Positions 1,945 to 61,303 of a stretch of DNA of 64,000 bases are shown here, in pieces; within the stretch, counting starts at the first letter, position 1, and every line of letters begins with the position of its first letter. Made by a program: the position numbers and the translations under genes. The stretch lies in the NCBI GenBank assembly GCA_029941885.1, contig JAPYTP010000001.1, positions 13,989 through 77,988 of the forward strand, in the 5' to 3' direction. The notes below the pieces were generated by a model. That model worked only from the letters and a program-made list of their open reading frames with translations, did not search any database and had not been told where the DNA came from. Source of the DNA: Myxococcota bacterium (GTDB lineage Bacteria; Myxococcota_A; UBA9160; UBA4427).

Positions 1945-2334
1945 GCGCGTTTCGAATGTCTGTCCGACTTCGAGTCTTCGCTTTCCTCTGCCGTCTCTAC
2001 TCTGTTCTTTCTTCGGGTGTTTTCGGTCGGTTGTGGCCTTTCGTCTCAGCGCAAATCCTTCGTTCGTGCATCGAGGATCGGGTGCCTGCGTCTGATCGGT
2101 TTCGACGATGATGCTTGCCCCCTGCAGCCGCAGAGCAAGCTCGGTTGGCGCTGGGCCTGACCGGAGGGGCGCTCGGAGGGAATGGAGGCGTTCTCTCCGA
2201 GTGCCCCAAGTCTCGAGGGTGATCGCCTCATTCATCCCACCGAGGGACGAGGGCGAGATCGCCCGGGGATTTCCATCCGCGGCACAGCCGGGGTTGTGGC
2301 AATATCCAGCCTCGCGAGGCGCCCCGATGGCGCA

Positions 2335-4017
2335 ATGAACCGAGGCGAACCCATCGTGACCATGCGTGATTTGCTCCTGGCGCGGGCGGAGGATGACTCC
2401 CCGGCGCTCTTTTTCGAAGACCAACAATGGACCTGGCGAGAATATGTCGAGGCTTGCTGCGAGCGTGCCGAGGCTCTGCTCTCGTGGCGAACCGACGACC
2501 TCGCGCGGGGGGGAGACAGCGGCCCCTTCCACGTCGGCGTGCTGCTCGAGAACGTGCCCGAGTATCTATTCTTGACTGGAGCCGCCGTGCTCGCCGGTGC
2601 GACACTCGTTGGAATCAACCCGACTCGCCGGGGTGCCGGACTCGAACGCGATATCCGTCATACGGATTGCCAGATCCTGATCACCGAGGATCGACATGCG
2701 GATCTCCTCGAGGGTCTTTCCCTCGACCTTCCCGAAGACCGCCTTTTCGATATCGCGAGCGAGGCGTGGCACGATTCGATCGCGGCATGGAAGGGTGCGG
2801 GTGTGCCCGACATCGAGCCCGATCCGGCAGCGGTCTATATGCTGATCTTCACTTCCGGCACGACCGGAGAACCGAAAGCGGCGCTCTGTTCCTCGGCTCG
2901 GACGGCTGCGGCCGGGAAGATGTTGAGCCAGATGCGCGGGTTGACCGCTCTGGACCGCGGCTATCTCGTCATGCCGCTCTTCCACTCGAATGCCCACATG
3001 GCCGGTGTCGCGCCGATCATGGCGGCCGGAGGATCCTGGGCGATTCGTCGAAAATTCTCGGCTTCGGGCTTCCTGCCTGATGTGCGGCGGTATGGCGTCA
3101 CCTATTTCAATTATGTCGGCAAGCCGCTGACCTATATTCTGGCGACCGAGCCCAAGGCGGATGACGGGGACAATCCGCTTCGTACGGCTTTTGGGAACGA
3201 GGGGGCGGAGCACGACCTGGCCCGCTTCTCCGAACGCTTCGGATGCGAGGTCGTCGATTCCTACGGTTCGACGGAAGGCGGCATCGCGATTGGCCGTACG
3301 CCCGACACCCCGGTCGGATCGCTGGGTGTCGCCCCGCCCGGGACACTCATCCTCGATCCGGAAACCCGCGAGGAATGCCCGAGTGCGCGTTTCGGAGCGG
3401 ACGGACGTCTGCTGAACTCCGACGAAGCAATCGGCGAAATCGTTAGCACCGAGAGCGCACGGCAATTCGAAGGCTATTGGCGAAATGACGAGGCGAACGA
3501 GGAGCGGACGCGCGATGGAATCTACTGGAGTGGAGATCTGGGCTATCGCGATGCGAAGGGCTTCTTCTTCTTTGCGGGGCGCAACATGGATTGGTTGCGC
3601 GTGGATGGCGAGAATATCGCCGCAGGCCCGGTCGAAAGGATCCTCTGCCGCTACGAAGCTATCGCACTGGCAGCGGTCTATGCGGTTCCGAATGCGGATG
3701 TCGGCGACGATTGTATGGCCTCGCTGATCCTGCGAAGTGGCGTCGAGTTCGATGCGGCTGGATTCGGACGCTTCCTGTCCGAGCAATCGGACCTGGGAAC
3801 GAAGATGGCTCCACGTTATGTTCGTGTGGCGAAGGATCTTCCCTCGACCGAGACGAACAAGATCCTGAAGCGTGTTCTCCGAGAGGAGCGGTGGGAATGC
3901 GCGGATCCCATCTGGCTGCGCGACGGAGAGTCCTTCCGTCGATTGACCGAAGCGGACGTGAAGTCGATTCGGTCGGCCTTCGAATCGCGGGGTCGAATCG
4001 GCGAACTCGATCGCTAG
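2335..4017 (+). CDS. AMP-dependent acyl-CoA synthetase/ligase (FadD-like)
   Basis: AMP-binding signature IFTSGTTGEPKA, later YGSTEGG and WSGDLGYRD..GFFFFAGR, and a C-terminal ..TNKILKR lysine motif. The track ORF starts at 2182; ATG 2335 (MNRGEP) or 2362 is more plausible. Confidence 0.85.
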   Translation: MNRGEPIVTMRDLLLARAEDDSPALFFEDQQWTWREYVEACCERAEALLSWRTDDLARGGDSGPFHVGVLLENVPEYLFLTGAAVLAGATLVGINPTRRGAGLERDIRHTDCQILITEDRHADLLEGLSLDLPEDRLFDIASEAWHDSIAAWKGAGVPDIEPDPAAVYMLIFTSGTTGEPKAALCSSARTAAAGKMLSQMRGLTALDRGYLVMPLFHSNAHMAGVAPIMAAGGSWAIRRKFSASGFLPDVRRYGVTYFNYVGKPLTYILATEPKADDGDNPLRTAFGNEGAEHDLARFSERFGCEVVDSYGSTEGGIAIGRTPDTPVGSLGVAPPGTLILDPETREECPSARFGADGRLLNSDEAIGEIVSTESARQFEGYWRNDEANEERTRDGIYWSGDLGYRDAKGFFFFAGRNMDWLRVDGENIAAGPVERILCRYEAIALAAVYAVPNADVGDDCMASLILRSGVEFDAAGFGRFLSEQSDLGTKMAPRYVRVAKDLPSTETNKILKRVLREERWECADPIWLRDGESFRRLTEADVKSIRSAFESRGRIGELDR

Positions 4018-4050: not shown

Positions 4051-5403
4051 TCAGGTCACCGTCGGCCGCATCGGCCAGATGGGCTGAGCGGTCGTGACCT
4101 CGGTGGTCGACTCGAGGACACGGAAAAGGGAATCGGGATCGATCTCGTTTGCGCGCATCCACGCGGCATTGCGATCTTCCGATTCGACGAAGACACAGGC
4201 GATGCGGTCGGCCGTCGATCGTGGGCGCTCGACGGCTTGTCCATCTTCCTTCTCCCAGTCGATCTGTGCTCGGCCCTCGGAGAGAGGGACAGATCGCCAG
4301 CCCGTCGTTTCCGTCGTGTTCTTCTCTTCGGCGGAACCAGGCGGGTCCTCGGGGTTGAGTTCGAGACATCCCTGCGCAGCTGGGTAGAGGAAGCGGAGGG
4401 CGTATCCCAGTCGATTCCTGCCTGCGTCGACTTCTGGAACGGTATTCGCTCCGATTGCGAAGTCGAGCGCCATCGCAGCGATATCCACTCCAGAGAAGGC
4501 CAGACCGCGGTCGACCGCGAGTCCGAGTTGGGGCCGCACATCGATCACGTGAAGCGCTTCTCCGTCGTCCAGGATGTCCAAGCTCAGAAAGCTCTCGTTG
4601 ACGCCGACCATGCAGGCCACGCAGGCGGCGAGTTCACCAAAGGCGTTCCACCGCGGGTCGTCGCCCGCTTGAGAGCCCGCCTGGGAACAACCCCAAGCCA
4701 TCCCGGTCGGGAGCGTGCCGCGAAGGTTTCGCATGGAGAACCTGCGTCCGAGAGAGAGCATCTTGAAAACGCCACCACGAATCACGCCGTTGACCGAGTA
4801 TTCGTCTCCCGCCACGAAGGCCTCGACGCGCACGAGTTCAGAATCTGACACGAGCCGCGCCTCGTCGAAAATCTCCCGATTGCGTGGGTCGCCGATCCGA
4901 ACTCGCGAGACGCCCGCCGAACCCCGCCCTCCGGTTGCGGGTTTGAGAAGCGCGGAGGGATAGGCGCCCAGAAATCGGTCGAGTTCGATCGGAGATTCGA
5001 GAATGGCTGAAACCGGCGTCGCGATTTCGGCGTCTGTCAGCACCTTCTTCCAGGCTGAGCGCGTGAGGAATGTCTCGATTCCCTCCGAGCTAGGGCCCGG
5101 GACGCCGAAGTCCTCACGAAGTTTCGCGGTAGCGCGAAGAGCGTTCGCGCTGCGCAGATTCGTCGCGATGCCGAGAACCCGGCCATTTTGGGAGACCGCC
5201 TGGATGTCGGCGTGGATTCCGTCGAGATCGTCCGTCTCGCGCGTCATGAGCCGCGTGGCGATGCGCGCCCCAGGTGCATCGGATTCCGGATCGAACACGA
5301 GGGTGTCAATTCCGCGTGCGCGAGCGCGCTCAAGGACGACGGCGGCGGATCGATCGGCACCGATCTGCACGAGCCATCGTGAGTCGTTCTGGCGTCCGGC
5401 CAT
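4051..5403 (-). CDS. ATP-grasp domain enzyme (ligase of unknown substrate)
   Basis: Layout is pre-ATP-grasp, ATP-grasp, then a C-terminal subdomain: LLKPATGGRGSAGV (P-loop-like), EAFVAGDEYSVNG, and a late ADRIACVF block typical of the family. The track ORF starts with GTG at 5409; the first ATG is 5403. Confidence 0.7.
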   Translation of the reverse strand: MAGRQNDSRWLVQIGADRSAAVVLERARARGIDTLVFDPESDAPGARIATRLMTRETDDLDGIHADIQAVSQNGRVLGIATNLRSANALRATAKLREDFGVPGPSSEGIETFLTRSAWKKVLTDAEIATPVSAILESPIELDRFLGAYPSALLKPATGGRGSAGVSRVRIGDPRNREIFDEARLVSDSELVRVEAFVAGDEYSVNGVIRGGVFKMLSLGRRFSMRNLRGTLPTGMAWGCSQAGSQAGDDPRWNAFGELAACVACMVGVNESFLSLDILDDGEALHVIDVRPQLGLAVDRGLAFSGVDIAAMALDFAIGANTVPEVDAGRNRLGYALRFLYPAAQGCLELNPEDPPGSAEEKNTTETTGWRSVPLSEGRAQIDWEKEDGQAVERPRSTADRIACVFVESEDRNAAWMRANEIDPDSLFRVLESTTEVTTAQPIWPMRPTVT

Positions 5404-5681
5404 CGACACTCAACACCACGCGATCAGGGAGGGTAGGCCGCGCGACCAGATCGTAGGCGATCCAGATGGCAGAGTATAGAACCCGAGGCCTCTGCGTCCA
5501 TGGGGGATAGTCCGCGTAGTGGGTCTGCGGGTTTGACGCTAGGTCACGTGGGGAAAATCCGGGATGCTTTGATAACGAAGCCACCGAGTAGGGTACGATC
5601 GCCTCCGATGAGATGGTCGAGAGCGAAGACGCGTACCGATCGTGTCGACTCCCGGTCGATTCCCACATAAGGAGGCTGTCA

Positions 5682-6074
5682 ATGGCTCGATTCATGGCTC
5701 CGCTGAAGGGACAGCTGTACGCCTGTCTTCGGATCGTTTCTGGCTTTACATTCTTGTGGCACGGCTCCCAGAAGCTGCTCGGCTTTCCGAGTGTCGCGCC
5801 GGCAGGCTTGCCGGATCTGGTGGTCTACGTGGCCGGACCGATCGAGCTGGTGGGTGGGATTCTGCTCGTCATTGGCTTCATGACGCGGTGGGTCGCATTC
5901 CTGTGTAGCGGACTGATGGCTGCGGCCTATTGGATGGCGCATGGCACGCAGGCCGTGCTGCCGCTTCAGAATGGCGGGGAGCTCGCCGTCCTCTACTGTT
6001 TTCTCTTCCTCTACATCTCCTCGAGCGGCGCGGGAATCTGGAGCGTGGACGCGAGTCGATCGGGATCGGAATGA
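5682..6074 (+). CDS. DoxX family membrane protein
   Basis: LRIVSGFTFLWHGSQKL, four hydrophobic helices, about 130 aa. AAGGAGG at 5669-5675 precedes ATG 5682. Confidence 0.8.
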   Translation: MARFMAPLKGQLYACLRIVSGFTFLWHGSQKLLGFPSVAPAGLPDLVVYVAGPIELVGGILLVIGFMTRWVAFLCSGLMAAAYWMAHGTQAVLPLQNGGELAVLYCFLFLYISSSGAGIWSVDASRSGSE

Positions 6075-6451
6075 ACCGGCTGGAAGTCGTGCCGATGGAG
6101 CCCGAAAGCCGATCCCTTCGCCTCTGGTGCGTCCTGCTCTCCCTCGCCGAGCCGCCGAACCCACCGGAGGTCGTATCGCAGCACCCGCCCGTTCCGGGGC
6201 GGGCGGAGAATCTGGTCTTCGAGTTCGACGAGGCCTATACCGCCTTCATGGACGGAACCAGTGTCCTGCCGAGTGAGACGCAGATGCTCGCCCTGCAAGC
6301 GATCGATACGAAGCTTGCAGCGATGGTCGGGGCGAAGGACGTAGAACTCTGGACCGAGAGGGCGCGTCGGGAGGACCCACTCTGGAGCGAAGTACGTACA
6401 TTGGCATCGCGGGTTCTCGACGAATTCGACTGGCCTGTCGATCGAGCCTGA
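6071..6451 (+). CDS. Hypothetical protein (126 aa), translationally coupled to DoxX
   Basis: ATGA start/stop overlap with the DoxX gene (6071-6074). High GC3. No family recognised. Confidence 0.5.
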   Translation: MNRLEVVPMEPESRSLRLWCVLLSLAEPPNPPEVVSQHPPVPGRAENLVFEFDEAYTAFMDGTSVLPSETQMLALQAIDTKLAAMVGAKDVELWTERARREDPLWSEVRTLASRVLDEFDWPVDRA

Positions 6452-6746
6452 GTGGATTGTCCGAGGCCGAGACCCTGACCGATCGCGTGTGTCCTGAACC
6501 ATCGCCCCGGCGAGGTGTCCTATCTTTTCGGAAGTCGAGAGAGGGATGACATGATCGAGGGATTCGACCCAAGCGAGATCGTTGCTTGTGCGCTGCGGCC
6601 ACAGGGAAGCTTGATTCACTTACTGACGTTGGCTGGCTTTGCAATGGCCGCCTGGTCGATTTCGCCGGCCCGCGAGTCGATTCCCCTGCGTGATGGCTCG
6701 GGTCGCTGAACGGCGAGATCCGAACCCGAGGGGACCGTGAATCGGC

Positions 6747-7556
6747 CTAATACTTCGACTCGATCGCCTCGAGAATCTGAAGTCCGTCTCGCAGGGCTCC
6801 CGCGTCATGGGTGCGGAGGAAATCTGCACCGACACGGGCAGCGTGGAGTTCTGCTGCGAGCGTCGCGGCTCCGATTTCGTCGATCGAGCGCCCTGTGATC
6901 GCACGCAGGAATGACTTCCGCGAAACAGAGATGAAGATCGGACGCCCGAAGCGTGCGCGCAGTTCCGGAATACGTTGCAGAACTGCAATCGAAGCCTGAG
7001 GGTCGGTTCCCAGAAAGAACCCCATGCCCGGGTCGACGATCAGCCGCTCCTCGGCGACGCCTGCGCGGGTGAGTTCGGCGAGCCGTGCGTCGAAGAATCG
7101 CTCGATCGATTCGAGGACCTGTGTCGGGGTTGCCGTGTCCCGGGTGGCCCGATCTCGTTCGAGTAGCGAGTGGACGACTACCACGTCGGCCGTTGCCGAC
7201 GCGAGGCGCTCCTGGGTCTCGCTGTCGGGAAAGCCACGAATGTCGTTCACCATGGCGACGCTCGTCCCGAGAGCCCAGGCCAGGACCAGAGGATCCGTTG
7301 CATCGATGGAAAGCGGCAGAGGACCGTCTGCAAGAGCGGCCACGACGGGCGTGAGCCGCTCGACCTGAGTGGAAGCGGGGACCGCGATCGCGTCGGGATT
7401 GCTCGAGGCGGGTCCGAGTTCAAGGAGATCCGCTCCCGCTTCGGCGAGGGCGCGCGCGTGTCGGATCGCCGCCTCCGGGGCGAGGTAGCGTCCGCCATCC
7501 GAGAAGGAGTCCTCGGTGATATTCACGACCGCGACGATCTTCGGGGCTACTCTCAT
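6747..7556 (-). CDS. folP: Dihydropteroate synthase, Sul2/Sul1-like (sulfonamide-insensitive type) by motif
   Basis: Pterin-binding DHPS motifs VNITEDSFSDGGRYLAP, LGPASSNPDA, NDIRGFPD, DPGMGFFLG, SVSRKSFLRAITGR, GAATLAAEL and GADFLRTHD. See finding. Confidence 0.9.
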   Translation of the reverse strand: MRVAPKIVAVVNITEDSFSDGGRYLAPEAAIRHARALAEAGADLLELGPASSNPDAIAVPASTQVERLTPVVAALADGPLPLSIDATDPLVLAWALGTSVAMVNDIRGFPDSETQERLASATADVVVVHSLLERDRATRDTATPTQVLESIERFFDARLAELTRAGVAEERLIVDPGMGFFLGTDPQASIAVLQRIPELRARFGRPIFISVSRKSFLRAITGRSIDEIGAATLAAELHAARVGADFLRTHDAGALRDGLQILEAIESKY

Positions 7557-7647
7557 ATCGGCTTTCTAGCACGCCCGCGGTGGGCTGGCGGTCGAGGGAG
7601 GGCGCGAGTTTGCGCCGAGATACGCCCGCAATGGGAGGACTTCCGAC

Positions 7648-8865
7648 ATGTCGACCCAGAACGCCCCCGAACGGCGCTCATTTCGGCAATACCATGCGGG
7701 CGAGCTTCTAGAGCGATTGCGAGAACAGCGCGATCGGCTTCCGTCTGACTACGCGGCGACCCTACGCCCCCTCGGTATCCGGATTCGCGAGACCGGCGAG
7801 GAAGTGACATACAGCGAGCGCGACAGGGGAGTCGACGTGACCCCCGGTGTCGAGGCGGCTTCGACCGTGGTCGGGCTGAGCGAGGTGAGTTGGGAACATC
7901 TGACCCGTGATCTCGAATCCTCCGCGGGGTTGATCTATGGCAACCGTGTCGAGCGAATACGCGGGGATCTGATGGAGTTGATGCAGTGGGAGCCGGCGCT
8001 TCGTTGGATGTTCGTTCGCCGTCCCGTCTACGACGAGAGCGCCGTCGATCTGCGTGGGGCCTCCGGCCGCCAGTTCGATTCGTGTCACGGCTTCCGCCCG
8101 GACGATGATAAAGAGGAGATGAAGGAGTACCTGCGGGCCGTCGGCTATCTGTGGATTCGCGGCCTGTTCTCGCCGGAGGAGGTCGCGACGCTGCAGGCCG
8201 AAGCCAATGAACTACGCGACGAGGCCGTCGAAGGGGATCAGCAGTCCTGGTGGGGCAAGACGGAGGAGGGTCAGTCTGTCGTGTGCCGAGTGCTTCGCGC
8301 CGGGACCAAGAAGAAGATGCGGTCGCTCCACGGAGATGATCGGATCGAGCGCCTCGCAGCGCTCTGCGACGTCCCGATGGCGACGAAGCAGGGCCCGGAG
8401 GACAAGGACGGCGTGACCGTTCTATGGAAGCAGCCCGGGGTGGCCGAGGGACTCGGTGACCTGCCCTGGCATCGCGATTGTGGAATGGGTGGTCACGCCA
8501 GCATGTGCCCGACGGCGGTCATGAGTCTATTTCTTGGACCCAACACGCCAGAGGCCGGTGAGATCCGATTTCTTCCGGGTTCCTGGCAGACGTCGCTGGC
8601 GTTCGCCGAAGGGGGGGCTCCATCCGCGCCGGAAGGAGTTGCTCCGCCCGCACTGCCCGGCGACGTCACCTTCCACTACGGCGACGGGCTCCACGTCGCA
8701 CCGCCACCGACCGGAACCGAGGAGCCGTTCCGGAGCTGTGTCCTGATCGGCTACCAACGGGTCGGGGCGCACCACCACCTCGGTGACCGCCACTACAACG
8801 ATCTGCTCCTGGGGAGTGAAGACGGCCAGATCGAGCATATGTCGAAGGTCGCCGACCGCCGCTGA
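7648..8865 (+). CDS. Phytanoyl-CoA dioxygenase (PhyH) family Fe(II)/2-oxoglutarate oxygenase with an N-terminal extension
   Basis: The C-terminal half has LPWHRDCG (HxD) and a later GDGLHVAPP His. GGGAGGA SD at 7633-7639 precedes ATG 7648. The N-terminal ~140 aa look SCP2-like (weak). Confidence 0.75.
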   Translation: MSTQNAPERRSFRQYHAGELLERLREQRDRLPSDYAATLRPLGIRIRETGEEVTYSERDRGVDVTPGVEAASTVVGLSEVSWEHLTRDLESSAGLIYGNRVERIRGDLMELMQWEPALRWMFVRRPVYDESAVDLRGASGRQFDSCHGFRPDDDKEEMKEYLRAVGYLWIRGLFSPEEVATLQAEANELRDEAVEGDQQSWWGKTEEGQSVVCRVLRAGTKKKMRSLHGDDRIERLAALCDVPMATKQGPEDKDGVTVLWKQPGVAEGLGDLPWHRDCGMGGHASMCPTAVMSLFLGPNTPEAGEIRFLPGSWQTSLAFAEGGAPSAPEGVAPPALPGDVTFHYGDGLHVAPPPTGTEEPFRSCVLIGYQRVGAHHHLGDRHYNDLLLGSEDGQIEHMSKVADRR

Positions 8866-9105: not shown

Positions 9106-10011
9106 TTGACACATTCTATGAACGCTGCGATCGACCTCGATGCCCGCGTCCTCGCCGAGCCTGTGCCCGCCTGCGATCCGGATCTCGCTACCTCCAACGA
9201 AACGACGAAAGTCGCGTCGATGAAGGGAACGATCCTTCGCTACCGAGCGGACCGCCGCTCCGTTTCGTACGCGTTGGCGATGTTCGGTCTGCATGCGGTC
9301 GCCTTCTTCTACGCTCCGACCTGGTTGGCCGCACTCTGCACGATTCCGCTCGCGATCGTCAGTATGTTCGTCGCGCCGATCAATCATCATCATCAGCATT
9401 TCAATACGTTTCACTCGGCGGCCCTGAATCGCATCTACGAGTTGGTGCTTTCTCTGCAGACCGGAATCAGCCCCTACGGCTGGGTCCTGCATCATAACCT
9501 CGGACATCATCGCAACTATCTCAATCAGCGACCCCATCCCCAGCCCGATGAATCGAAGTGGACACGCAAAGATGGTTCACAGATGGGCAGGGTCGAGTAC
9601 ACGATCGATCTCGTTCTGAACCACCAGATCGACATCATGCGCGTCGGTCGGAAACATCCGAGATTCCTCAGTGCCTTCCTGCTGATGAAGATCCCTGTCT
9701 GGACGATTCTCGGAATCGCGCTCTACATCAATCCGCTGAACGCCTTCCTGGTCCTGCTGATTCCCTCGTTCATCGCGCTCTGCCACACATCCTGGGCGAC
9801 CTATGAGCATCACGCGGGCAACTATCCATCGTGTCACGAAGACGCGAGCATGAATCGTACGAGTCCCCTCTTCAACTTCATGACCTACAACCTCGGCTAC
9901 CATACGGCACACCACAAGCGCCCCGGAGTCCACTGGTCATTGCTTCCGAAGATCCACGAAGAGATCAAGGACCAGATTCCGCCGGAGATGATTCAGACCA
10001 GCTTCTGGTAG
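9106..10011 (+). CDS. Membrane fatty-acid desaturase family protein
   Basis: Three histidine boxes: NHHHQHF, HHNLGHH, HTAHHKRP. Several TM helices. The track start is TTG 9106; ATG 9118 or ATG 9220 (MKGTILRY) are alternatives. G+C is visibly lower than in neighbouring genes. Confidence 0.8.
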   Translation: MTHSMNAAIDLDARVLAEPVPACDPDLATSNETTKVASMKGTILRYRADRRSVSYALAMFGLHAVAFFYAPTWLAALCTIPLAIVSMFVAPINHHHQHFNTFHSAALNRIYELVLSLQTGISPYGWVLHHNLGHHRNYLNQRPHPQPDESKWTRKDGSQMGRVEYTIDLVLNHQIDIMRVGRKHPRFLSAFLLMKIPVWTILGIALYINPLNAFLVLLIPSFIALCHTSWATYEHHAGNYPSCHEDASMNRTSPLFNFMTYNLGYHTAHHKRPGVHWSLLPKIHEEIKDQIPPEMIQTSFW

Positions 10012-13485: not shown

Positions 13486-14904
13486 ATGAGCCGAGACTCG
13501 CCCGACGGTAGCGCCCGGGAATCCCAGGATTCTCCGTCTACGACCCCTTCGCCCGAGAACGCCGAGCGAGGATCGGAGGGCTACGCGTGGTACGTCGTCA
13601 GTGTGCTGATGCTCGTCTACCTGTTCTCGTTTCTCGATCGACAGATCTTGAGCCTGATGGTCGACGACTTGAAGGTCGGTCTGTCGATCGAGTTCGATTG
13701 GCAGGTCGCGTTCTTGATGGGACCCGCGTTCGCGATCTTCTACACGATCTTCGGGATTCCCTTCGGCCGCGCCGCGGACACGCGAAGTCGAAAACACACG
13801 ATCTCTCTGGGCCTCGTGCTCTGGAGCATCGTGACAATCGGGTGTGCTTTCGCGCGAAATTTCTGGCACATGGCTCTTTTGCGCGTCGGGGTCGGCGTGG
13901 GAGAAGCTTCACTCTCTCCCTCTGCCTATTCGATCATCGCGGACTATTTCGACGGATCGAAGCTTGCGAGGGCGATCGCGATCTACTCGAGCGGGATCTA
14001 TCTCGGTTCGGGACTCGCCTACCTGATCGGCGGCCAGGCCGTCTCGATGTTTCGCGGAACGACGCCCTGGGAGATCCCGGTCCTGGGAATGATTCCCGGT
14101 TGGCAGAAGGTCTTCATCATCGTCGGCTTGCCGGGTCTCTTCATCGTCCCCCTCCTACTCCTGACGGTGCGCGAGCCCCTGCGGAGGGGAGTGGTCGCAT
14201 CGCGCGCCGGGGATGGGACGACAGATCTTCCCCTATCCGAGGTCTATGCGTACGCTCGGGAGAACTGGAAAACGCTCGCGACGCATAATATCGGATTCGC
14301 GCTGTTGTCATTCTCGAGTTATGGCACAGGCTCCTGGCTGCCCTCGATGTTCAAGCGAGTCCACGGTTGGGATGTCGCGCAGTTCGGCCTCGTCTATGGG
14401 CTGATCGTGTTCATCGGCTCCGCGAGCGGCGCGATTCTCGGCGGTGTACTCGCCGACTGGCTCAGGAAACGAGGCTATCGCGATGCGAAGATCCGCGTCG
14501 GCTTCTTCGCGGCTTGGATGTGGCTCCCCTTCGGAATCGCCTTTCCCATCATCGACGACGGCAATCTCGCGATGGCCGTTGCCGCGCCCGCGGCGTTTCT
14601 GGCATCGATGCCCTTCGGAGTCGCTCCTGCGGCGCTCCAGGAGATGATGCCCAACAACCTGCGAGGGCAGATGTCGGCGATCTATCTCTTCGCGACGAAC
14701 CTCTTGGGACTGGCGATCGGGCCACTGATCGTGGGTGCGATGACCGACTTTGTCTTTTCCGAGGCGTCCTATGGGATTGGTGGAATTCGCTGGTCGCTGC
14801 TGACAACGACACTCGCCGCGCACCTGATCGCGACCCTTCTTCTCTACAAGGGGATGGGGGAATACCGGAAGTCGCTGGATCGATTCGAGGCACAGGGCGG
14901 CTAG
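13486..14904 (+). CDS. MFS transporter
   Basis: About 12 hydrophobic helices, FLDRQILSL, and the GRAADTRSRK loop motif between TM2 and TM3. Confidence 0.85.
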   Translation: MSRDSPDGSARESQDSPSTTPSPENAERGSEGYAWYVVSVLMLVYLFSFLDRQILSLMVDDLKVGLSIEFDWQVAFLMGPAFAIFYTIFGIPFGRAADTRSRKHTISLGLVLWSIVTIGCAFARNFWHMALLRVGVGVGEASLSPSAYSIIADYFDGSKLARAIAIYSSGIYLGSGLAYLIGGQAVSMFRGTTPWEIPVLGMIPGWQKVFIIVGLPGLFIVPLLLLTVREPLRRGVVASRAGDGTTDLPLSEVYAYARENWKTLATHNIGFALLSFSSYGTGSWLPSMFKRVHGWDVAQFGLVYGLIVFIGSASGAILGGVLADWLRKRGYRDAKIRVGFFAAWMWLPFGIAFPIIDDGNLAMAVAAPAAFLASMPFGVAPAALQEMMPNNLRGQMSAIYLFATNLLGLAIGPLIVGAMTDFVFSEASYGIGGIRWSLLTTTLAAHLIATLLLYKGMGEYRKSLDRFEAQGG

Positions 14905-23385: not shown

Positions 23386-23523
23386 CGGAAAGATCGCCGT
23401 CGTCGCGCTGGGTACGACTCGCTGCGCGCGAATCGAGCTGGTAGCGTCACTCCTTGCCGGGTCCCAATGGACCTGCATGCGCCGTTTTCTGTTGCGCTGC
23501 GCGGACGCGAGGAAGAGGCGCGG

Positions 23524-24393
23524 ATGAAATTCTGGCAGTCGATCACCTGGGCCGAGACGGATCAACTCTGTGAGATCGCCCGATTTGCCGACGAACTCGG
23601 CTTCGAAGGGATCATCGGCGCCGACCACGCGCTCTATCCGAAAACGATGGTGCCCGGCTATCCCTACTCAGAGTCCGGCTATCCGCCGCAGACGGCCGAG
23701 AGCGAATATCCCGACATGTGGACGAGTACGGCGGCGATGGCCGCGGTGACGACTCGCATTCGCTTCGTCTGCGGCGTGTATGTACTGCCTCTGCGCGATC
23801 CGATCGAGGTCGCGAAGCAGGCGGCGACGCTGGCAATCCTTTCGAGGGGACGATTCGCGCTTGGCATCGGTGCCGGGTGGATGAAGGAAGAATTCGATAT
23901 CTATGGCGTCGAATTCTCGAGCCGGGGTCGGCGGATGGACGAGATGATCGACGTGATGCAGGGCCTCTGGACCGGGGACTTCTTCGAGTATCACGGCGAG
24001 TTCTTCGATTTCGATCCGATCGTGGTGAGCCCGAAACCCAGCCACCCGATTCCGATCTACGTGGGTGGCGCCGCACCGGCCGCGTTGCGTCGGACGGCGA
24101 GGGTCGGCGACGGGTGGATCGGAGCGGGGAACGCGCCCGAGGACGTTCCTGCCGTGTTGGGGGAGATAGAGCGCTTGCGCCTCGAGGCGGGCCGGGCCGA
24201 TCAGCCCTTCGACTCCCTCGTTGGAGTCTATGCGGATCCCGACGTCGATCTCTTTCGCCGACTCGAAGACGACGGGATGACCTCGGGGATCCATCTTCCC
24301 TTCTGGTTCGCCTTCGATGGCCCGTCGACCCTCGATCAGAAGAAGGCGTTGATGGAGCGCTTTGCCGAGGAGATCATTCGACACTTCGTCTGA
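23524..24393 (+). CDS. LLM-class (luciferase-like) F420-type oxidoreductase, paralogue 1
   Basis: MKFWQS..., LGIGAGWMKEEF, PKPSHPIPIYVGG. Paralogous to the genes at 33136 and 60407. Confidence 0.8.
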   Translation: MKFWQSITWAETDQLCEIARFADELGFEGIIGADHALYPKTMVPGYPYSESGYPPQTAESEYPDMWTSTAAMAAVTTRIRFVCGVYVLPLRDPIEVAKQAATLAILSRGRFALGIGAGWMKEEFDIYGVEFSSRGRRMDEMIDVMQGLWTGDFFEYHGEFFDFDPIVVSPKPSHPIPIYVGGAAPAALRRTARVGDGWIGAGNAPEDVPAVLGEIERLRLEAGRADQPFDSLVGVYADPDVDLFRRLEDDGMTSGIHLPFWFAFDGPSTLDQKKALMERFAEEIIRHFV

Positions 24394-33135: not shown

Positions 33136-33987
33136 ATGAAATTCGGCCTCATGTTCGCCAACGTCGGCCCCTTCGGTCAGCCGGAAGGCCTCACCCACCT
33201 CGCGCAGACGGCCGAGTCCGTCGGTGTCGAATCGCTATGGACCGTCGAGCACGTCGTCGTTCCCAAGGGTTATGCCTCGCAATATCCGTATAGCCAGGAC
33301 GGGAAGATGCCCGGCTCGGAGGAGAACCCGTTCCCGGACCCGTATGTCTGGCTCTCCTACGCTGCCGCAGTCACGAAGACCATCAAGCTCGCGACCGGCA
33401 TCATCATCCTTCCTCAGCGACACCCCTTCTACATCGCCAAGGAAGCTGCGACCCTCGATCAACTGTCAGGCGGTCGTCATATCCTGGGCGTAGGCATCGG
33501 CTGGCTCGAGGAGGAGTTCAAGGCGCTCAAGGTGCCCTTCGACAAGCGGGCTCCGATCACGGACGAATCGATCGAGGCGATTCGCGATCTCTGGAGTGAG
33601 GGGCCCTCCGCACACAAGGGCGACCACTACGAGTGGCCCGCGGTCGAGTCGAACCCGAAGCCGGTCGGCGGTTCGCTTCCGATCGTGATCGGCGGACACA
33701 CAAAGAGTGCTGCGCGGCGTGCGGCACGCCTCGGCGATGGTTTCTTTCCGGCGAGGGGGGACAAGCTCGAGGAGGGCATCGCCGAGATCAAGGCCGAGTG
33801 TGCTCGCATCGGTCGGGATCCGAGTGAAATCGAAATCACCGGCGGGAGCCTGCCGACCCCGGATGAGGTGAAGCGCCTCGAGGATATGGGCGTCAGCCGT
33901 TTCGTAACGGGCCCCCCCGGCTTCAGCCCGGACGACGTCAAGGCCGGCCTGGAGAAGCTTGGCGACGAGCTCTTTTCGAAGTTCTAG
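33136..33987 (+). CDS. LLM-class F420-type oxidoreductase, paralogue 2
   Basis: MKFGLMFANVG..., LGVGIGWLEEEF, PKPVGGSLPIVIGG. AGGAGA SD. Confidence 0.85.
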   Translation: MKFGLMFANVGPFGQPEGLTHLAQTAESVGVESLWTVEHVVVPKGYASQYPYSQDGKMPGSEENPFPDPYVWLSYAAAVTKTIKLATGIIILPQRHPFYIAKEAATLDQLSGGRHILGVGIGWLEEEFKALKVPFDKRAPITDESIEAIRDLWSEGPSAHKGDHYEWPAVESNPKPVGGSLPIVIGGHTKSAARRAARLGDGFFPARGDKLEEGIAEIKAECARIGRDPSEIEITGGSLPTPDEVKRLEDMGVSRFVTGPPGFSPDDVKAGLEKLGDELFSKF

Positions 33988-43293: not shown

Positions 43294-43749
43294 CTAACGC
43301 GGTTGGCAATCGAAGACGGGGATGTTGCGGTCGGTCCTCGCACGGTAGTCGGCGAACTCGTGGTAGTGCTCGACACAGGTCGGCCAGAGTTCTTCCTTCT
43401 CGGCGTCATCGACCTGACGGGCGACGAGTTCCATTCGCTTGCCCATGAACTGCGCGACGATATCCGAGTTGGCCTGGATATTCTTGACCCAGATCGGGGA
43501 TTTGGGCGCCCCCCCTTGCGACCCGACGATGATCACGCCGTCCTTGTGCGGGACGTACATGAGCGGGATCGTGCGTTTCTTGCCGGACTTCGCGCCCTTC
43601 ATTTCGATCAGGACCACGGGTCGGCCCTGGAATTTTCCCATCAGGCGTCCGCCGGTCAGCTTGTAGACGACGCTGTTGAGGCCGGAGAAGGGCTTGATGA
43701 AACTTCGTAGCCGCTTGAATTCTTTTTCGGTCATCGGATTTTCAGCCAT
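43294..43749 (-). CDS. Deazaflavin(F420)-dependent nitroreductase family (DDN/PF04075-like) protein
   Basis: LIEMKGAKSGKKRTIPLMYVPHKDGVIIVGSQGGAPKSPIWVKNI and WPTCVEHYHEFADY match the family pattern as recalled. Confidence 0.75.
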   Translation of the reverse strand: MAENPMTEKEFKRLRSFIKPFSGLNSVVYKLTGGRLMGKFQGRPVVLIEMKGAKSGKKRTIPLMYVPHKDGVIIVGSQGGAPKSPIWVKNIQANSDIVAQFMGKRMELVARQVDDAEKEELWPTCVEHYHEFADYRARTDRNIPVFDCQPR

Positions 43750-60181: not shown

Positions 60182-60406
60182 CGGTATTCGTTCCGGCGAC
60201 TGGAATCGAATCGGCCCCCGTCGCTTCCCGGTCGTGGATTCGGAGGGTGCTTGCCGATCGTTCCCGTATGACTGGCCGCGGTGCTTCTGCTACCGAATTC
60301 CCATGGCGACGCCTCTTCGGACAGCCCCGAAGGTCTCGCCGGTTCGGGTCCGTTGGACGACGGATGGGTGGGGCAGCGAAAGTGTTGCGAAGGAGGAGAA
60401 CACAGC

Positions 60407-61303
60407 ATGAAGTTCGGAATTCGAATCCCCCCGCCACAGATGGGACCGATCGGGGATCCAGACTTCATCGTGCGCTATTCGCAATTGGTGGAGAGTCTCG
60501 GCTTCGAGTCGCTCTGGACGATCGATCACGCCGTGATGCACATGGAGTACGACTCGCGATATCCCTACAAGACGACCGGCCGCACGCCGCTTCCCGCGGA
60601 TTCGAATATGCCCGACCCGTTGATCATGATGAGCCTGATCGCGGGAGTGACGGAGCGGATTCGGCTCGGAACCTCGATGCTGATCCTCCCGCAGCGGAAT
60701 CCTCTGATTCTCGCGAAAGAGGTCGCCTCTCTGGACCAGTACTCGAAGGGTCGGATCACGTTGGGAGTCGGCGTCGGCTGGGTCAAAGAGGAAGCCGAAG
60801 CGATGAGTCAGGACTTCAGCGATCGCGGTCGACGTGCAAACGAATGGATCGAAATCCTGAAGGTGCTCTGGACGGAGGACGTCTCGGACTATGAGGGTGA
60901 CTATTTCCAGTTCAAGAGCGTCATCAGCAATCCGAAGCCGGCTCAGCCTGGCGGTGTACCCCTCATGATCGGCGGACACAGCGAAGCGGCCGCACAGCGG
61001 GCCGGGCGCTATGGGGACGAATTCTATCCACATTGGTCGACTCGGGGCCCGAACAAGGAGGAACTCGAGCGCCTGATGCCGATGGTCATGGAGAGCGCTG
61101 AAAAGGCTGGGCGCCCGCTCGACGCAGTCAAGCTCACGCTCACGGGTACGAGCGATGCGAAGACCGCGCTCGAGACGGCGGAGTTCTGTGCCGAACTCGG
61201 GGCGGACCGGGTGGTCGTTCTGCCGCCGAAGGGCGATCTCGAGGCTGCGCTGCCGGAGGAGCTCGCACGTTTCCGGGATCAGGTGATCGCGAAGCTCGGC
61301 TGA
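60407..61303 (+). CDS. LLM-class F420-type oxidoreductase, paralogue 3
   Basis: MKFGIRIPPP..., LGVGVGWVKEEA, PKPAQPGGVPLMIGG. AAGGAGGA SD at 60390-60397. Confidence 0.85.
   Translation: MKFGIRIPPPQMGPIGDPDFIVRYSQLVESLGFESLWTIDHAVMHMEYDSRYPYKTTGRTPLPADSNMPDPLIMMSLIAGVTERIRLGTSMLILPQRNPLILAKEVASLDQYSKGRITLGVGVGWVKEEAEAMSQDFSDRGRRANEWIEILKVLWTEDVSDYEGDYFQFKSVISNPKPAQPGGVPLMIGGHSEAAAQRAGRYGDEFYPHWSTRGPNKEELERLMPMVMESAEKAGRPLDAVKLTLTGTSDAKTALETAEFCAELGADRVVVLPPKGDLEAALPEELARFRDQVIAKLG

Follow-up and report, generated by a model that had tools for sequence, protein, structure and literature searches.

The 64,000-nucleotide stretch analysed here (the window; positions 13,989 to 77,988 of contig JAPYTP010000001.1, assembly GCA_029941885.1) comes from an uncultured Myxococcota lineage and carries a gene, here called folP*, for a Sul-type dihydropteroate synthase (DHPS). 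The gene is likely to be functional and to be a long-standing, vertically inherited part of the chromosome of this lineage. Most probably it is the housekeeping DHPS of the lineage, relocated from the ftsH-glmM slot, and it would also be the sole copy in its genome. Open reading frame (ORF) and translation place folP* on the minus strand at 6747..7556, with an ATG at 7556 and a TAG stop at 6749-6747. Its product matches PF00809 with 183.7 bits (cutoff 25.5) and lies above the cutoff of the DHPS equivalog TIGR01496 (219 bits, cutoff 162.6), in agreement with an earlier sequence-only reading, which had called a 269-residue DHPS at this position without stating the strand. With the resistance models, the product scores highest for Sul2 (297.5 bits), followed by Sul3 (241.2), Sul1 (208.2) and Sul4 (64.3), and its PDB sequence matches are led by Sul2 (7s2j, 283 bits), then Sul3 (239) and Sul1 (208). 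All ordinary DHPSs in the PDB score 145 bits or less, and the E. coli-type FolP model (PRK11613) gives 134 bits. The product stays below the curated NCBIfam cutoff of every Sul model (Sul2, NF000295, 575; Sul1, Sul3 and Sul4, NF000294, NF000296 and NF033502, 600, 475 and 600, respectively), and thus the product is Sul-like, yet is not Sul1, Sul2, Sul3 or Sul4. NF000295 is an antimicrobial resistance "exception" model, and its cutoff amounts to near-identity to Sul2.

The Sul-type signature lies in alpha6 and in loop 2. These segments were compared in an alignment of the window protein, Sul1-3, E. coli FolP, the sequences of 80 genome loci and the best representatives from a protein search that was exhaustive over 1.84 billion cluster representatives. 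The alignment held 204 near-full-length DHPS domains, of which 199 were kept after removing five chimeric or frameshifted rows. Two extra alpha6 residues are found in 154 Sul-type sequences and in none of the 45 ordinary DHPSs, and no intermediates between the insertion-bearing form (G-M-G-F-F-L-G/S) and the ordinary form (G-[IFL]-G-F-G-K) are seen among the 199 sequences. The window protein groups with the 154 insertion-bearing sequences, carrying GMGFFLG against the ordinary G[IFL]GF--GK. By direct sequence reading, the motif with its two-residue insertion occupies codons D175-P-G-M178-G-F180-F181-L182-G183 (7008..7034, minus strand), and F180, L182 and M178 align with F179, L181 and M177 of Sul2. 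The M178 position is Met in 95% of Sul-type sequences versus I/F/L in ordinary DHPSs, and the Lys that follows the motif (E. coli K192), found in 95% of ordinary DHPSs, is S/T/A in the Sul type. The loop-2 signature, codons G48-P-A-S-S52-N53-P-D55 (7392..7415, minus strand), co-varies with the insertion, its ordinary counterpart being G-G-E-S-T-R-P-G. At the position of E. coli R63, Arg is present in 100% of ordinary DHPSs versus 1% of the insertion clade, where Asn (58%) or His (37%) is found, and loop 2 of this clade further shows Thr62 to Ser (95%), Glu to Ala (77%) and Gly to Asp (68%). The window protein has the insertion-clade consensus at all these discriminating positions.

Three strings had been put forward from the sequence alone as separating Sul enzymes from housekeeping FolP: VNITEDSFSDGGRYLAP, LGPASSNPDA and DPGMGFFLG. 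All are present in the folP* product, and the E. coli comparators given for them (NVTPDSFSDGG, GGESTRPG and DPGFGFGKN) are right, as checked on a FolP sequence that matches PDB 1aj0 at 100%. The blocks given for Sul2 (FFDAR.A.LT.AG, SVSRKSFLRA.TGR, GAATLAAEL, GADF.RTH and RDGL) likewise all match Sul2 as translated from a plasmid. As separators, the loop-2 and alpha6 strings stand in the alignment, whereas the first string is non-discriminating, since the loop 1 pattern N-x-T-x-DSFSDGG is universal in DHPS.

The catalytic and ligand residues N12, D85, N104, D175, K214, R248 and H250 are kept, as is loop 1 (D16-G22); their E. coli equivalents are N22, D96, N115, D185, K221, R255 and H257, with DSFSDGG in loop 1. 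An AlphaFold model built from a 35-sequence alignment (predicted local distance difference test, pLDDT, 87.6; predicted template modelling score, pTM, 0.88) is a TIM barrel of eight strand/helix units, with low confidence confined to three mobile catalytic loops; DSSP assigns a 4-residue helix at 179-182 of this model. In a Foldseek search against the PDB every one of the top 15 matches is a chain of Sul2, Sul3 or Sul1, the first being 7s2k_A, from a product complex of Sul2 (TM 0.93, root-mean-square deviation 1.7 A). More than 50 DHPS and Sul chains match with TM 0.82-0.94, and ordinary DHPSs rank after the Sul chains.

Could folP* encode a DHPS-like paralogue that has lost dihydropteroate synthesis, being either inactive or a pterin-binding enzyme that uses another aryl-amine supplied by neighbouring oxygenases and ligases? 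The neighbourhood, rich in ORFs of the PhyH, fatty-acid desaturase, AMP-ligase and ATP-grasp-like kinds, and the position of the gene outside any folate context would fit such a role. M. tuberculosis FolP2 is an inactive DHPS-like paralogue, and its structure (2vp8) scores only 65.9 bits with the window protein. The neighbours lie on the opposite strand and PhyH is missing from 9 of the 12 syntenic loci described below; hence there is no operon logic. The window protein was also mapped onto the Sul2 residues N12, S17, F18, S52, M177, F179, L181, K213 and S214 (residues per PMC10328974), and every catalytic, pterin-, pyrophosphate- and para-aminobenzoic acid (pABA)-contact residue is identical to that of Sul2, a proven DHPS (PMC10328974). 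Loss of DHPS function is very improbable on this evidence.

To place the protein among DHPSs, a neighbour-joining (NJ) tree of 199 taxa was calculated from 266 columns with 200 bootstraps. In this tree all 154 insertion-bearing sequences form one clade, and the window protein falls within it, not among ordinary FolP. Within this clade, it belongs to a separate 27-member group (bootstrap 70; 91 for an inner 13-member clade) composed only of loci from Myxococcota or "Deltaproteobacteria" and of metagenomic proteins. The window protein shares 54.2%, 46.5% and 42.3% identity with Sul2, Sul3 and Sul1, respectively, and across its entire Myxococcota clade the identity to Sul2 is 52-56%. Sul1-3 are 43-54% identical to one another and are thus about as far apart as the window protein is from them. 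Sul2 nests inside a Parvibaculum group with bootstrap 100, and chromosomal folP* genes of Parvibaculum encode proteins 69.5-80.6% identical to Sul2 (L024, L056, L032, L030 and the P. sedimenti isolate L052). In the tree Sul1 is grouped with P0132, a metagenomic representative (bootstrap 74), and Sul3 is placed near Binatia and Leptospiraceae sequences, without resolution.

These relationships bear on the proposal, made from the sequence alone, that folP* is closely related to the pool from which the clinical sul genes arose. That the gene is a member or immediate relative of this pool, or else a recently acquired mobile sul gene, might be read from its best NCBIfam and PDB matches, which are Sul2, and from the insertion and loop-2 signature shared with Sul. 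This is exceedingly unlikely given the distance in bits and identity from Sul1-3, the separate position of the window clade, which lacks glmM, and the evidence against recent acquisition from composition, conserved gene order and a window free of mobile-element genes. Within PLSDB, the plasmid-borne protein nearest to that of the window is Sul2 itself, at 54%. The remnant of glmM that follows sul2 on a plasmid matches the GlmM encoded beside Parvibaculum folP* in L024 at 97.5% identity over 81 residues, and a tblastn search with GlmM gave no match in the window or across L009-L021 (13 loci). The proposed closeness to the pool is therefore not borne out: the relationship is 54% to Sul2, versus 69-81% for Parvibaculum, within which Sul2 nests at bootstrap 100 and where the glmM remnant has its match. 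As progenitor of Sul2 the window gene is refuted by the position of Sul2 within Parvibaculum, and the placement of Sul1 and Sul3 lacks resolution. By these sequence comparisons, the window enzyme is a distant cousin of Sul1-3 and not their source.

An origin of sul1/2 in Rhodobiaceae, including Parvibaculum, was traced by Sanchez-Osuna et al. in 2019 (PMC6335563). The sequences compared here agree with a Parvibaculum origin of sul2, which the folP* and GlmM of L024 sharpen. In this locus, from the Parvibaculum sp. metagenome-assembled genome (MAG) JAUSMV01 (L024:9920-12228), folP* is 80.6% identical to Sul2 in protein and 72.6% in nucleotides. The match of its GlmM to the truncated glmM that follows sul2 on a Klebsiella plasmid (L007:2483-3627) is the tightest link to a source of sul2 among the loci fetched.

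The gene is native to its chromosome on every test available. Its GC content is 0.646 against 0.628 for the window, and its codon-position GC (0.73/0.50/0.71) is typical for genes of the window. Pfam annotation of ~55 ORFs over the 64 kb gives oxidoreductases, hydrolases, acyl-CoA dehydrogenases and transporters, with no transposase, integrase or recombinase, and no tRNA is present in the 64 kb either. Around folP*, a search for flanking repeats, insertion sequence ends and attC-like structures gave nothing beyond four inverted pairs, short (15-19 nt) and imperfect (79-87%), taken as chance. The identical protein, with the same neighbours, is found on six independent assemblies (GCA_029935975.1, GCA_029935915.1, GCA_029935995.1, GCA_029936035.1, GCA_029936015.1 and SRR21607482). 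In the 12 closest genome loci, from species-level MAGs of Myxococcota or "Deltaproteobacteria" (PBFW01, CAVORA01, JAUIMK01, PAQX01, DGPZ01, JASDVF01, CBFDDD01, CAWLAJ01, JAQBEG01, JBDNFB01, JBGCEJ01 and JAWKRX01), the DHPS is 64-77% identical and lies in a shared block of the order fatty-acid desaturase - [PhyH] - DHPS - hyp126 - DoxX - short-chain dehydrogenase/reductase or AMP-ligase, the neighbour proteins being 50-90% identical. These 12 syntenic loci together with L020 make up L009-L021. Values of dN/dS for folP* are 0.13-0.20 against 6 orthologues, rough values as dS is above 1, and indicate purifying selection on the gene.

The 64-kb window contains neither ftsH nor glmM, and tblastn with GlmM is without a match there as well. 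The canonical ftsH-folP-glmM flanks are absent from the window and from the 12 syntenic loci, where fatty-acid desaturase/[PhyH] and hyp126/DoxX are found instead. Gene content, composition and synteny thus bear out the view, already taken from the sequence alone, of a chromosomal gene outside the ftsH-folP-glmM arrangement without a nearby mobile element. In the window, folP* stands by itself on its strand, with a convergent neighbour on one side and a divergent one on the other, and in all syntenic loci too the DHPS gene has its strand to itself; folP* is therefore monocistronic.

Far from being exceptional, the Sul-type form of the enzyme is widespread. When one genome per GTDB species was scanned by pattern, at least 600 stretches were returned, at least 577 of them encoding a relative; flanks and taxa were surveyed in the best 80 of these at least 577 relatives. 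Among these 80 are Myxococcota/Deltaproteobacteria and many Alphaproteobacteria (Parvibaculum, Rhizomicrobium, Micropepsaceae, Tepidicaulis, Phaeomarinobacter and the PS1 clade), along with Gammaproteobacteria, Planctomycetota, Binatia, Leptospiraceae/Spirochaetia, Flavobacteriaceae and Candidatus Kaiserbacteria. The rarity implied by the sequence-only reading, which spoke of a few environmental lineages, is out of date in view of the matches in several phyla. When flanking ORFs were clustered and Pfam was run on the cluster representatives, most alphaproteobacterial loci had the order YbgF-TilS-FtsH-DHPS*-GlmM-ThiD. GlmM is at +1 in 37 of the best 80 loci and FtsH at -1 in 26, with more masked by antisense-ORF artefacts. 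Because the ftsH-folP-glmM slot is occupied by it, the Sul-type gene is the canonical housekeeping folP of those organisms, and the Sul type is a housekeeping form of the enzyme. In Nannocystaceae, other Myxococcota, Binatia, Planctomycetota, Leptospiraceae and Spirochaetia the flanks are heterogeneous and without folate genes.

It is rather unlikely that folP* is an auxiliary copy, with an ordinary folP elsewhere in the genome, perhaps beside ftsH/glmM, and with a back-up or condition-specific role, for example against a natural pABA antimetabolite. Such a copy would be consistent with the monocistronic arrangement of the gene on its own strand. A Sul-type gene itself fills the canonical folP slot in at least 37 loci and can be the sole housekeeping DHPS. 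The window holds a single DHPS-family ORF, and the 80 related loci, 1.36 Mb in all (~20 kb per genome, ~10 kb each side), gave no second one either; the strong conservation across the clade, with the low dN/dS above, also argues against an auxiliary copy.

Several points weigh against the reading of folP* as the functional, vertically inherited housekeeping DHPS of the lineage. In this lineage the gene adjoins no folate gene, and its non-canonical context without folate genes, like the fact that only 64 kb of the genome is seen and a second, ordinary folP may lie elsewhere, speaks for an auxiliary copy. The tree is NJ and not maximum likelihood, its backbone is without support, and the insertion clade has modest bootstrap values (46 for the full set of 154 sequences, 64 for a 150-sequence core). 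Across the 12 loci, the correlation of DHPS identity with mean neighbour identity is not significant (rho 0.37, p 0.23) and was not used. Activity and resistance of the window protein are inferred, and at 54% identity to Sul2 a quantitative level of resistance should not be assumed.

A precedent for the behaviour of such an enzyme is given by structures and mutagenesis of the Sul proteins, in which F179, L181 and M177 of Sul2 exclude sulfonamides and still admit pABA (Venkatesan et al., PMC10328974). A change of this Phe to Gly sensitises Sul1-3, and insertion of FG renders E. coli DHPS resistant (PMC10328974). E. coli FolP itself is sulfonamide-sensitive, with a Ki for sulfamethoxazole (SMX) of 5.1 uM, close to its KM for pABA (PMC10328974). 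Chromosomal genes have also been expressed: the minimum inhibitory concentration (MIC) of SMX for E. coli rose from 8 to >512 mg/L with folP* of P. lavamentivorans and to 512 mg/L with that of L. interrogans, whereas the motif-less folP of R. sphaeroides and C. trachomatis gave no rise (PMC6335563, Table 2). Intrinsic sulfonamide insensitivity, suggested for the window enzyme from its sequence, stands as a prediction: the Phe/Leu/Met of alpha6 are present, and two chromosomal DHPSs with the Sul motif gave MICs of at least 512 mg/L. By analogy with these enzymes, the window enzyme is predicted to be insensitive because the alpha6 Phe takes the space needed by the sulfonamide moiety.

In the mechanism proposed here, the window enzyme would convert 6-hydroxymethyl-7,8-dihydropterin pyrophosphate and pABA to 7,8-dihydropteroate for folate synthesis, with catalysis presumably via the universal DHPS residues N12, D85, N104, D175, K214, R248 and H250. 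Alpha6 is longer by two residues (G-F180-F181-L182), and loop 2 is remodelled to A-S-S-N-P-D with the conserved Arg gone. As in Sul1-3, the Phe side chain would fill the site of the sulfonamide group and its N1 substituent, so that pABA may bind and sulfa drugs would be excluded. The gene would be transcribed alone, the DHPS having apparently moved out of the ftsH-glmM slot.

More broadly, the Sul type may be not a peculiarity of two families, born in Leptospiraceae and handed to Rhodobiaceae, but an ancient alternative housekeeping DHPS of many phyla that has become the sole, relocated DHPS in this marine/soil Myxococcota lineage; this is put forward tentatively, with a little less than even confidence. 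If so, the whole uncultured lineage would be sulfonamide-insensitive and would form an unmobilised reservoir, apart from Parvibaculum, for a further type of sul gene. Chromosomal Sul-motif DHPSs are a known kind of gene, and what is new here is the phylum, with a lineage of Myxococcota that keeps the gene at a conserved, non-canonical locus of its own. The sampling behind the 2019 model, with its origin in Leptospiraceae and later transfer into Rhodobiaceae, was very small, as this lineage and the at least 577 GTDB matches across several phyla together show. Gly-Phe-Phe has been noted in "hundreds" of NCBI DHPS sequences, with its significance left open (Venkatesan et al. 2023, PMC10328974). 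The "naturally circulating" Gly-Phe-Phe DHPSs can now be viewed as largely the housekeeping enzyme of their organisms. No later literature on the distribution of the Sul type or on the Myxococcota clade was found in the papers searched.

In JGI annotation, many native members of the Myxococcota clade (e.g. P0004, P0012 and P0023) are named "dihydropteroate synthase type 2", the KEGG-style label for sul2. Because pipelines label them in this way, native Sul-type genes can be counted as sul2 in resistome surveys of marine and soil samples and push the totals up, and such surveys need a cutoff near the NCBIfam 575 bits or ~90% identity. None of these points gives the window gene clinical relevance by itself.

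The immediate neighbours of folP* are as described from the sequence alone, with DoxX and a 126-residue hypothetical protein on one side and PhyH on the other. DoxX (5613-6074; Pfam 57.8 bits) and hyp126 (6071-6451; 126 residues, matching no Pfam family) overlap by 4 nt and together occupy 5613..6451 on the plus strand, convergent with folP*. Homologues of DoxX and/or hyp126 lie 0.1-1.9 kb from the DHPS stop in 12/12 syntenic loci, and both are present in 10/12. On the other side, a PhyH-family dioxygenase (7648-8865, plus strand; Pfam PhyH, 42.3 bits) is variable within the clade, being found in 3 of 13 loci counting the window (the window, L018 and L021 only). This gene is an indel in an otherwise kept block, and between the fatty-acid desaturase and the DHPS of the nine other syntenic loci no homologue was detected. 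The fatty-acid desaturase-family protein follows at 9106-10011 (plus strand; FA_desaturase by the precomputed annotation of L001), and its homologue adjoins the folP* block in 12/12 syntenic loci. All of these neighbours are context, with no functional link to folP*. The 91-bp divergent intergenic region between folP* (minus) and PhyH (plus), 7557..7647, is presumed from gene order and orientation to contain the folP* promoter. A promoter/terminator consensus scan of 6300-7800 found none, including no sigma-70-like promoter, the consensus being uninformative for the host phylum.

Elsewhere in the window, a 452-residue ORF at 4051-5409 (minus strand) has a weak match to an L-amino-acid-ligase C-terminal domain and stands tail-to-tail with an AMP-binding ligase at 2182-4017; the 452-residue ORF is present in some syntenic loci only. 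The window also encodes three luciferase-like monooxygenases (23467-24393, 33136-33987 and 60281-61303) and a protein of the F420H2-dependent quinone reductase family (43294-43749), which may point to a redox metabolism linked to F420 in the lineage.

Some individual sequences in the survey are unusual. CPR lineages (the candidate phyla radiation) are usually regarded as minimal in biosynthesis; in a MAG of Candidatus Kaiserbacteria, a member of this radiation, a Sul-type DHPS gene is directly preceded on its strand by HPPK (folK) (L067:9494-10840). This separate folK is the sole direct folate link within the insertion clade, in which no HPPK-DHPS fusions were found. Two long Sul-type proteins are a GNAT+DHPS* (P0123) and a DHPS*+SnoaL (P0125). 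In P0165 and P0153, RepC or a class-II glutamine amidotransferase is joined to ~99-100% Sul2 sequence, and these look like chimeric gene calls from mobile-element contexts. The DHPS ORF of L021 (9986-11584; 10656-10814) reads 530 residues in a long-read MAG, with the C-terminal DHPS part in another frame; a fusion is ruled out, the ORF being a frameshift, by assembly error or in a pseudogene. The MAGs titled "Klebsiella pneumoniae isolate LH-02apr19-159" (L083) and "Rhizobium sp. Q54" (L075) encode Sul-type DHPSs that share 51% and 49% identity with that of the window. The context of L075 is the alphaproteobacterial DHPS*-GlmM-ThiD and that of L083 is unrelated; the Klebsiella title of L083 looks like a taxonomic mislabel.

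Among known systems, the window enzyme resembles the FolP* of Parvibaculum/Rhodobiaceae and Leptospiraceae (PMC6335563) in being chromosomal and native, in carrying the two-residue Sul insertion and in belonging to the same insertion clade, and by analogy it would be expected to give an SMX MIC of at least 512 mg/L in E. coli. It differs from them in coming from Myxococcota, in a separate subclade with 48-57% identity to the alphaproteobacterial and Leptospiraceae sequences, and in its context, which is fatty-acid desaturase/[PhyH]/DHPS/hyp126/DoxX in the window, ftsH- or tetR-folP*-glmM in Rhodobiaceae and lipoprotein/TPR in Leptospiraceae. With Sul2 (7s2j/7s2k) it shares an identical alpha6 DPGMGFFLG and loop-2 GPASSNPDA and the same ligand-contact residues; unlike sul2, the window gene lies off mobile elements, has no truncated glmM downstream and falls outside the Parvibaculum+Sul2 clade. 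Sul1 (7s2i) and Sul3 (7s2l/7s2m/8scd) have the insertion, the Phe/Leu/Met triad and the fold in common with it, but are 42% and 46.5% identical, with model scores of 208 versus 600 bits and 241 versus 475 bits, respectively. E. coli FolP (1aj0; PRK11613) has the same TIM barrel, catalytic residues and loop 1, and the same reaction is expected; at 29% identity, however, R63, T62 and K192 are missing from the window protein, which has the two extra alpha6 residues.

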